Position numbers and translations under genes: made by a program. The notes beneath the pieces are model-generated. The model made no database searches, was not told the DNA's origin, and worked only from the letters and a program-made list of their open reading frames with translations. A DNA stretch of 11,490 nt from the IMG/VR virus record IMGVR_UViG_2778261058_000014, positions 1 to 11,490 of that record, one strand, 5' to 3'. The stretch comes from a virus (taxonomy: Duplodnaviria; Heunggongvirae; Uroviricota; Caudoviricetes). This document shows, in pieces, positions 3,968-4,794 of this stretch (positions are counted from its first letter, which is position 1; every line of letters starts with the position of its first letter).

Positions 3968-4255
3968 TCACTGACTGCAATTTTTCGATCCAGGGTATTT
4001 CCTGAATGCCTTACCATTGGGCTGATGTAATCCCATCCCGGCATGTGCCCGGCTGATGGTTTCGCGCATCTCCCCGAAATTATCCTGCCTTGCTGGTGGG
4101 CGTGCTGCCTTGTGGATACATTCCGCGCGACGTTTTGCCGCCTGTTCCCGTGCCTTGTCATCATTCGCCAGCATGATGACCTCAGCCCACCGCGCCGCCG
4201 CTCTCCGGTACAGGCCACGCGCTTCCAGTGCTTCCGCTTTGCTGTCGTGAATCAT
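3968..4255 (-). CDS. PerC-family transcriptional regulator (PerC/Pch-like), 95 aa
   Basis: N-terminus MIHDSKAEALEARGLYRRAAARWAEV matches the PerC-family signature as I recall it. ATG overlaps the stop of the upstream gene (ATGA coupling). Confidence 0.7.
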   Translation of the reverse strand: MIHDSKAEALEARGLYRRAAARWAEVIMLANDDKAREQAAKRRAECIHKAARPPARQDNFGEMRETISRAHAGMGLHQPNGKAFRKYPGSKNCSQ

Positions 4256-4794
4256 GCGCCTGTTTTCTCCTTTGCTACCCGGCGCTGACGTTTGCGCTTC
4301 TCATTCAGCGCCACCAGCCGCGTTTCTGCCTCCTGCTGTTCCTGTGGTGTCACCTCGCCGCACGGCTGGCCTTTCAGGTCGTAACGTGCACCACCAGCCA
4401 TTAAGGCGCGGTAATAGCGCGGACACTGCGCATAAGATGCCAGCGTCGCACGTAATGCCCCCGGCCCGAACGCCAGCCCCCTGACGGCGATATCCTGCAT
4501 CAGGTCGTCAAATATCCCCACCTTCAGCGGCTTCGGAGCTTCCCGGCTGAATAATTCAGGCCACAACTCAGTGAGGCGGTTAACGCGCCTGCGGTTTTTG
4601 CGCTGGCGTTTGGTCATATGCCGCCACGGTGTCGCCCCTGTGGGCTTCTGCTGCGCTTTCTGGTTACCGGGCATCACTTTATGCGCCGATGTGGTTTTAT
4701 CCTGCTCCTGCGCCGCCTGCGTCGTTTTCTGCGGCGTGCCGTAAATGCCTTTCGGTTTTCTGTTAATGGTCAGCTTTGTCATGCTTTGCCCCAT
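4252..4794 (-). CDS. ProQ/FinO-domain RNA-binding protein, 180 aa, with a basic low-complexity N-terminal region
   Basis: PKPLKVGIFDDL...LRATLASY...RYYRAL...GARYDLKGQPCGEV aligns by eye with the E. coli ProQ N-terminal FinO domain (RPLKIGIFQDL...LRSALRLYTSSWRYL...GATRVDLDGNPCGEL, from memory). Alternative start at the internal ATG (MTKLTIN, 4782). Confidence 0.75.
   Translation of the reverse strand: MGQSMTKLTINRKPKGIYGTPQKTTQAAQEQDKTTSAHKVMPGNQKAQQKPTGATPWRHMTKRQRKNRRRVNRLTELWPELFSREAPKPLKVGIFDDLMQDIAVRGLAFGPGALRATLASYAQCPRYYRALMAGGARYDLKGQPCGEVTPQEQQEAETRLVALNEKRKRQRRVAKEKTGA

Follow-up and report, generated by a model that had tools for sequence, protein, structure and literature searches.

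A FinO/ProQ-family gene with an intact RNA pocket, paired with perC on an Escherichia coli island of the phage-inducible type

FinO-domain proteins and a relative encoded on the island

Among bacterial RNA chaperones, FinO-domain proteins make up one of three major classes, and the members from mobile elements that have been studied so far (FinO and FopA) each revealed a dedicated antisense-RNA circuit. The subject of this report is a gene for a protein of this kind on an 11,490-nucleotide stretch of viral DNA (IMG/VR record IMGVR_UViG_2778261058_000014, positions 1 to 11,490; this whole stretch is hereafter called the window), which by its gene content and layout is a Gram-negative phage-inducible chromosomal island (PICI) of E. 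coli. The gene was found to be a genuine and conserved FinO/ProQ-family gene, the product of which has its RNA pocket intact. It is read here as encoding an RNA-binding protein of the FinO type that probably acts on terminator-type RNA, from an optional accessory gene in the last cassette of the replication operon of the island.

Each of FinO, FopA, RocC and ProQ engages structures of terminators and exerts its effect at the post-transcriptional level, in many cases on behalf of a mobile element, and the plasmid- and phage-encoded homologues are treated in general terms in an evolutionary review of the family (PMC9977716). In the crystal structure of RocC with RocR, the terminal nucleotide of the terminator tail is held in a pocket of Tyr87, Arg97 and the turn around Gly52, and the substitution R97M reduces affinity more than 200-fold (PMC9674577). 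For E. coli ProQ, residues Y70, R80 and R58 were essential for the binding of 7/7 RNAs tested, with G37 being universally conserved (PMC10168233). Concerning phage satellites, PICI AVS0889 of E. cloacae is annotated with a ProQ/FinO-like chaperone and another PICI with PerC (PMC13612085, at the level of annotation only), and ProQ/FinO genes are mentioned as annotation in episomal satellites of Vibrio (PMC13230959). These satellite genes carry the same annotation as the gene of the window and are likened to it by annotation alone.

Positions 4252-4794 of the window (minus strand) were found in the list of open reading frames (ORFs) to hold an intact ORF of 180 codons, the ATG of which lies at 4794. 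Most homologues and the RefSeq annotations use the second ATG, at 4782, resulting in a protein of 176 aa (gene 4252-4782, minus strand). The upstream ATG is absent from the reading frame in the related loci L003, L007 and L012, the aligned start in L013 is GTG, and in the window no purine-rich Shine-Dalgarno sequence (SD) precedes the ATG at 4794. Comparison with homologues supports the start at 4782 over that at 4794. Residues are numbered below in the 180-aa form unless stated otherwise.

An earlier note, made from the sequence of this DNA alone, had aligned the C-terminal two-thirds of the protein by eye with the FinO domain of ProQ, and a profile search bore this out. Pfam PF04352 (ProQ/FinO) was matched with E=1.1e-23 and 83.7 bits (gathering score 27), with residues 68-172 of 180 aligned to profile positions 5-108 of 109 and no other family matched in the Pfam search. 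Sequence matches to solved FinO domains included the N-terminal domain of ProQ (5nb9, 4e-12) and FinO (1dvo, 3e-11), followed by NMB1681 (3mw6), Legionella ProQ and RocC (7rgu), with 6s10 also being among the aligned structures. An AlphaFold model, built on 17 homologues, had a pLDDT above 90 at residues ~60-178 and below 50 at residues 1-9 and 15-49, with helices at 62-77, 94-105, 111-122, 125-133 and 150-178 and strands at 136-138 and 144-147. Comparison of this model to the PDB using Foldseek gave significant hits to FinO-domain structures only (RocC 7rgt/7rgu, FinO 1dvo and NMB1681 3mw6), with a target-normalised TM of ~0.8 and an rmsd of 2.4 Å.

The FinO domain, together with a long basic C-terminal helix, is encoded by positions 4261-4611 (minus strand) and holds residues G93, R115, Y127 and R137, which in every pairwise HMMER alignment align with G37/R58/Y70/R80 of ProQ and G52/R75/Y87/R97 of RocC. 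Among members of the clade, G93, Y127 and R137 were invariant or nearly so, and at the position of R115 two of the 17 aligned homologues have Cys and the other 15 have Arg. Since these four residues correspond to the pocket residues of ProQ and RocC, the protein would retain the machinery to grip a terminator hairpin and its 3' end. The RNA 3'-end pocket of the family is thus retained as judged from these alignments, and the protein is predicted to be an RNA binder.

Ahead of the domain, residues 1-57 in the numbering of the 176-aa protein (4612-4782, minus strand) constitute an N-terminal extension, in which the motif MTxLTINRKPKG is near-invariant and the run KRQRKNRRR is present. The basic and disordered nature that the earlier note had ascribed to this part was evident from its composition, with residues 1-61 possessing ten K+R and two D+E, a pI of 10.5 and a content of Q/T/P/G/S/N of 52%, in addition to the low pLDDT values given above.

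Full-length copies had an overall dN/dS of 0.2-0.35, with values of 0.09-0.24 for the domain and 0.19-0.46 for the disordered N-terminus, and the gene was undamaged in all PICI-context loci examined. By these ratios, intact copies of the gene are evolving under purifying selection. It may be considered whether the gene is a decaying passenger with no current function, as many copies in CP4-57-like islands (described below) are frameshifted or truncated and many database homologues are fragments. The values for full-length copies, the conservation of the RNA-binding residues in nearly all of them and the intact state of the gene in its PICI contexts make such decay highly improbable.

Regarding named members of the family, the protein is neither an orthologue of FinO nor of ProQ according to profile scores. 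FinO of F-like plasmids (1DVO) is its closest plasmid relative, sharing the same domain with 34% identity over 106 residues (E=3e-17). Both proteins are encoded on a mobile element and possess a basic N-terminal extension, a single FinO domain and a basic C-terminal helix. A short N-terminal likeness (MT..LTxxRKxxG) was seen in a multiple alignment and was non-significant by BLASTP. Differences from FinO were also identified, with the protein lacking ~15 residues of the long N-terminal helix of FinO and scoring 66.1 bits against the NCBIfam FinO model NF010317, the cutoff of which is 136. In addition, FinO belongs to the F-type transfer region with its FinP/traJ partner, whereas the gene of the window is situated in no tra operon but in a PICI, where no FinP-like RNA was found with Rfam.

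ProQ of E. coli and Salmonella (5NB9) is the best sequence match among solved structures. The likeness to E. coli ProQ proposed in the earlier note holds for the FinO domain, including the four pocket residues, and not for the overall architecture, which is closer to that of FinO. ProQ has a linker and a C-terminal domain, whereas the protein of the window ends ~30 residues past the FinO domain. Furthermore, ProQ is encoded by a core gene and has no N-terminal extension, in contrast to this island-borne accessory with its extension, and the score with the ProQ equivalog model NF003434 was 56.4 bits against a cutoff of 127. As both NCBIfam scores are far under their cutoffs, the protein is not a drop-in FinO. 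RocC of Legionella (7RGU, bound to the RocR terminator) is the best structural match and has counterparts for all four pocket residues, with 26-27% identity to the protein of the window. It differs in that its C-terminus is extended by a long segment and that a single sRNA is known as its partner. FopA (YafB) of the IncI plasmid pCol1B9 is a mobile-element FinO-domain protein that acts on the replication-control antisense RNA of its own plasmid (PMC9977716, PMC7491321). It is conceptually the closest model for a FinO-like protein near a replicon and is likened by description, not by sequence, with the window differing in having no Inc-like antisense RNA or RepZ-type leader and replication of the iteron/primase-helicase type.

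The perC junction and the replication operon

A gene for a small regulator of the PerC family (3968-4255, minus strand, 95 aa) follows the FinO-like gene and was matched by PF06069 (E=5e-32; 110.5 bits, gathering score 22.6; positions 1-89 of a profile of 90), phrog_994 and PHROGs of transcriptional activators. The FinO-like gene ends and perC begins within a shared ATGA, in which stop and start codons overlap (4252-4255, minus strand), and an AAGGAG SD of perC lies within the 3' end of the FinO-like gene (4267-4272, minus strand), with equivalent purine-rich motifs being present in L003, L004 and L007. The ATGA junction is shared with L001, L002, L004 and L010, while TAAATG is found in L007 and TGAgtATG in L003, and this tight arrangement is kept though PerC identity drops to 44%. 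Translational coupling, as the earlier note had claimed, is plausible given this overlap, with perC also possessing its own SD and the pairing of the two genes being frequent yet not obligatory.

The PerC protein of the window shares 45-50% identity with PchE, PerC of EcCICFT073 and EcCIMP1_025. Of the PerC homologues encoded by PICIs, those of EcCIEDL933 and EcCICFT073 left LEE1 fusions unaffected, and LEE1 is repressed by EcCIMP1_025 (PMC11773190). As the PICI homologues tested were either inert on LEE1 or repress it, the word activator in the earlier note is a family label rather than a finding, with the assignment to the PerC family itself being upheld.

Directly after perC, two tandem terminator hairpins with U-tracts were identified with a terminator scan (3892-3966, minus strand), with stem 1 at 3945-3962 and its tail at 3939-3944, and stem 2 at 3902-3924 and its tail at 3892-3901 (RNA fold -37.2 kcal/mol, z=-3.07). 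They would mark the end of the transcription unit and are candidate ligands in cis for the FinO domain. A terminator-like hairpin after the last gene of the module was also found in L001 and L010, in L002-L005, being weak in L002 and L003, and in Sp7 (L009). The exception is L007, the hairpin of which has no T-run.

The FinO-like gene might be a functional partner of PerC, with the RNA-binding protein controlling the translation or stability of perC mRNA or forming a complex with PerC, so that the two would constitute a two-level regulator of late genes of the island or of virulence genes of the host. This proposal is regarded as tentative and rather doubtful. The juxtaposition of the genes (ATGA, TAAATG or TGAgtATG) is kept while PerC diverges, both genes (3968-4794) have a GC content of 57-59%, higher than that of the island genes around them (~50%) and of the origin beside them (29%), and a common terminator follows them. 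Against this, PerC is found without the FinO-like gene in EcCICFT073, Sp7 and EcCIMP1, the FinO-like gene is found without PerC in L012 and the CP4-57-like branch, the order of the genes is reversed with a gap of 80 nt in L005, and perC has an SD of its own. The conserved junction suggests a functional tie between the two genes, though not an obligatory one. Concerning composition, the GC3 of the FinO-like gene is 67%, and the source of the cassette of both genes may differ evolutionarily from that of the rest of the island.

The earlier note had placed the gene beside an origin on a mobile island, and this was found to be so. The origin (4795-5163) consists of 11-bp iterons, AACTGTCTACC, in both orientations around an AT-rich core, with a GC content of 29%. 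Allowing up to two mismatches, 12 of the 18 matches of this repeat in the window are located there, compared to a chance expectation of 2 for the window as a whole. This fits the layout published for PICI origins, in which an AT-rich core is flanked by iterons (PMC6092414). Upstream in the same operon lies the gene for a D5/P4-type primase-helicase, the PICI replicase (5164-6969, minus strand; PF08706, PF19263, PF03288, TIGR01613), and further upstream that for AlpA (10897-11085, minus strand, profile matches), so that alpA, replicase and origin follow one another in one direction as has been described for PICIs (PMC6092414).

The islands of FDAARGOS_1058 and cq9 are near-identical, with a size of ~11-14 kb and a tyrosine integrase at the end, which in cq9 is beside tRNA-Gly. 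RefSeq names the gene pair in both of these islands as 'ProQ/FINO family protein' and 'PerC family transcriptional regulator'. An integrase at the end, a size of ~10-15 kb and no full set of structural and lysis genes of a phage are the features by which a PICI is recognized, and the window itself holds only protease/scaffold-like genes and a TerS-like gene of such a set.

AlpA has been described as the master regulator needed for lytic gene expression of PICIs, and in published models the replication operon is under the control of AlpA after induction by a helper phage (PMC11773190). No minus-strand terminator was predicted by the terminator scan from the primase gene to the FinO-like gene, and this, along with the hairpins that follow the last gene, indicates that the FinO-like/PerC pair closes the replication operon. 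A weak sigma-70-like site was found within the origin (4899-4872, minus strand). The promoter of the FinO-like gene must lie within 4795-5163, or transcription reads through from the primase gene.

Distribution, candidate ligands and proposed function

Among complete E. coli genomes, DNA coding for the domain was found in 1079 of 5426 (~20%), at 1544 sites that were all chromosomal, with up to nine in a genome. One of the carriers is E. coli ARS-C101, in which this DNA is matched at 100%. The clade of the FinO-like gene is always located on satellites or related islands. When 1.84 billion cluster representatives were searched exhaustively, 2233 members of the family were found at E<=1e-3, a number that fell to 9 at E<=1e-30, and a word-indexed search gave 280 relatives, of which nearly all named ones were from Escherichia, Shigella, Salmonella or Citrobacter. 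With so few close matches from so few genera, the clade is narrow. A species-level scan, with one genome per species, returned only two loci. The clade was not found on true plasmids, where the best real hits were at most ~43% identical and in the domain only, nor in phage genomes, seven weak hits aside. Several plasmids of very small size (4-13 kb), from Enterobacter, Citrobacter and E. coli (hits H99-H111 and H119-H121), encode ProQ/FinO-family proteins of their own, which are 30-42% identical to the protein of the window.

Comparison of gene order among the loci indicates that the FinO-like gene is an optional member of a variable post-origin cassette, which can be written as (small ORF)-(SSB)-FinO-like-(PerC)-terminator. 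A gene for single-stranded DNA-binding protein (SSB) precedes the FinO-like gene in L004, L005 and L012, and in L003 and L007 the sequence upstream of it ends in an acidic ...IPF tail typical of SSB. As SSB lies upstream in these other loci, the direct contact with iterons appears to be peculiar to the lineage of the window. The gene was found with three unrelated replicases, namely the D5_N/DUF5906 primase, a DUF927 protein and a RepA helicase. In L005 and L006 the FinO-like/PerC order is reversed, and in L012, a capsid-forming island, the overlapping downstream ORF is for an unrelated protein of 82 aa without a PerC signature.

A sister branch, with ~67% protein identity and the same N-terminal motif, is found in CP4-57-like islands beside YfjI/YfjJ and an AlpA-like gene (L011, L013 and L014, of E. 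coli 86-24, Nord1 and 14EC017). These loci have no PerC and no adjacent replicon, and the gene is often frameshifted. The branch converges on a conserved gene of ~180 aa without a Pfam match (tested for L013). Cargo such as dnd genes, Afa/Dr adhesin genes and resistance genes was observed among its neighbours.

The position of the gene could be taken to mean that the protein is an accessory of replication that acts at the adjacent origin, for instance by handling primer or origin transcripts or by working with SSB. In the window, the gene starts immediately next to the last iteron, and elsewhere it adjoins SSB directly after the replicase and origin. The evidence from the other loci makes such a role very unlikely, as the gene accompanies three replicase types with different origins, is separated from the origin by SSB in most lineages and occurs in CP4-57-like islands without an adjacent replicon. 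In addition, EcCICFT073, which has no such gene, replicates from its cloned replication gene and origin alone (PMC6092414). FopA regulates the replication initiator via an antisense RNA (PMC9977716), with no such RNA being found here using Rfam. We know of no FinO-domain protein that primes replication. The adjacency to the origin, which the earlier note had read as a functional link, is therefore positional only, and the replication priming that it had proposed is unlikely, the gene being optional and tied to no single replicase or origin.

Post-transcriptional control, as also proposed in the earlier note, is plausible for this protein. Under the favoured reading, that of an optional protein that acts on terminator-type RNA, it would clamp an intrinsic terminator at the base of the hairpin and at the 3' U-tail, as other FinO-domain proteins do, and the bound RNA would be shielded from 3' exonucleases, helped to pair with a partner, or both. 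The protein would be made once the replication operon of the island is switched on, and its targets would be one or a few transcripts of the island, the helper phage or the host. The nearest candidate ligand is the tandem terminator that ends its own proQ-perC mRNA, in which case the output of PerC would be tied to the level of the protein.

Several results weigh against this reading. PICIs in general do not need the gene for their life cycle, as it is absent from EcCICFT073, Sp7/EcCIEDL933 and EcCIMP1, the three E. coli PICIs with experimental data. The literature search found no functional study of the clade and no data on RNA binding or expression for its members, since these three model islands happen to lack the gene. 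The idea of the own mRNA terminator as ligand is weakened by Sp7, which has PerC only and the same kind of terminator, and by the CP4-57-like branch, which has no obvious terminator after the gene. A search of the whole window against Rfam at E<=1 gave four sub-threshold chance hits only and no FinP, C4, Inc or other antisense family. Synonymous identity at the codon level was flat across 10 loci, with an overall value of 0.71 and the highest value, 0.87, at codons 21-35. Lastly, a FinP/traJ-like antisense RNA to the leader of alpA, suggested by a plus-strand hairpin with a T-run (11245-11266), was rejected as it does not track the FinO-like gene. This hairpin in the int-alpA intergenic region (11245-11275, plus strand), antisense to the predicted promoter region of alpA, is present only in the window, the near-identical L010 and, weakly, L007. 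It is absent from L001, L002 and L005, which carry the gene, and from CFT073, which does not and the AlpA of which is 98% identical, and the region around it is not unusually structured (z=+1.0).

Other candidates were also set aside. An RNA element overlapping the gene was rejected, as the low dS of its N-terminal part is accompanied by low dN, which points to mosaic recombination and not to constraint on an RNA. Terminator-like hairpins on the plus strand within the ORF (4574-4590 and 4733-4749) are weak, with 5 bp, and four such sites were found compared to 2.1 +/- 1.7 by chance. The 'DNA transfer' genes of EcCIMP1 were considered as the FinO gene of that island and rejected, as they encode DNA-ejection-like proteins.

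The targets might also be foreign, with the protein serving as a weapon in trans that binds antisense or immunity RNAs of the helper phage, or FinP-like RNAs of F-type plasmids, and so manipulates the timing of the helper or suppresses competitors. Such a role is considered unlikely. FinO-family proteins are known to adopt foreign RNAs, as in the cases of RepX with FinO and RocRp with RocC (PMC9977716), the gene is optional and mosaic, as accessory and conflict genes tend to be, it lies within a helper-induced operon, and the closest plasmid relative of its product is FinO of F. Against this, the FinO-like gene matches no PADLOC defence model, the specificity of the protein is not predictable from sequence, and the NCBIfam scores argue against a drop-in FinO. 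The form of this idea in which a helper-induced satellite chaperone would capture terminator-type RNAs (immunity or antisense) of the helper phage or of co-resident plasmids, thereby reprogramming helper timing or disabling competitors, is more speculative still and is put forward as an outside chance. If true, it would be the first protein-based interference mechanism at the RNA level described for a PICI.

Remaining genes of the island and meaning of the FinO-like gene

The other genes on the minus strand of the island include protease/scaffold-like genes, a TerS-like gene and a DUF4747 cargo gene, along with a run of small genes before the primase gene and a gene for an AntA-type antirepressor (10044-10844, minus strand, profile matches). 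Directly upstream of the primase gene lies a DUF4222 gene (6966-7256, minus strand), which by domain and position corresponds to RgdR (ECs1581), a published island regulator of type III secretion and motility, with RHGD at the place of the RGD motif of RgdR. A neighbouring small ORF had been considered as this published PICI regulator and was rejected, as RgdR corresponds to the DUF4222 gene.

Positions 8255-10051 are occupied on both strands. The minus strand has an ORF of 598 codons that is S/C-rich and junk-like, with only the last ~120 codons being gene-like, at the slot of an Icd-like gene in relatives. On the plus strand, the C-terminal part of ORF 8643-9119 is a candidate for a YlcI/YnfO-type ORF, named by its position in relatives and without a Pfam hit, and it is followed by ORFs of ~60 aa (9189-9368 and 9426-9608) and then by strong terminators (9721-9740 and 9995-10020). 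As the closest relative, FDAARGOS_1058, covers just 86% of the window and is shorter in the stretch matching 8255-10051, this region may be an inserted divergent unit.

Two adjacent genes at 2234-3563 (minus strand), for proteins of 197 aa and 223 aa (DUF2213), match a single PHROG of 545 residues (6216) at positions 402-544 and 115-328, and the pair resembles a split or rearranged protease/scaffold-like protein. The DUF4747 gene (1-894, minus strand) has a GC content of 37% and a GC3 of 28%, which is very low for the island. This gene, situated at the island end, is probably accessory cargo of foreign origin, and no PADLOC defence model was matched by it. The sequence AAGTGTCAACC was found three times (1436-1446, 1628-1638 and 1657-1667, two on the minus and one on the plus strand) between a small ORF (1227-1406) and the TerS-like gene, and this cluster could be an operator or a packaging-site repeat.

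The annotation of the FinO-like gene is not new, as it is already named by RefSeq, and genes of this kind are mentioned in passing in papers on satellite genomics. It is an island-specific member of a known family. The identity of its ligand would show whether phage satellites use control at the RNA level, and could clarify the role of the PerC homologues that are widespread among PICIs.

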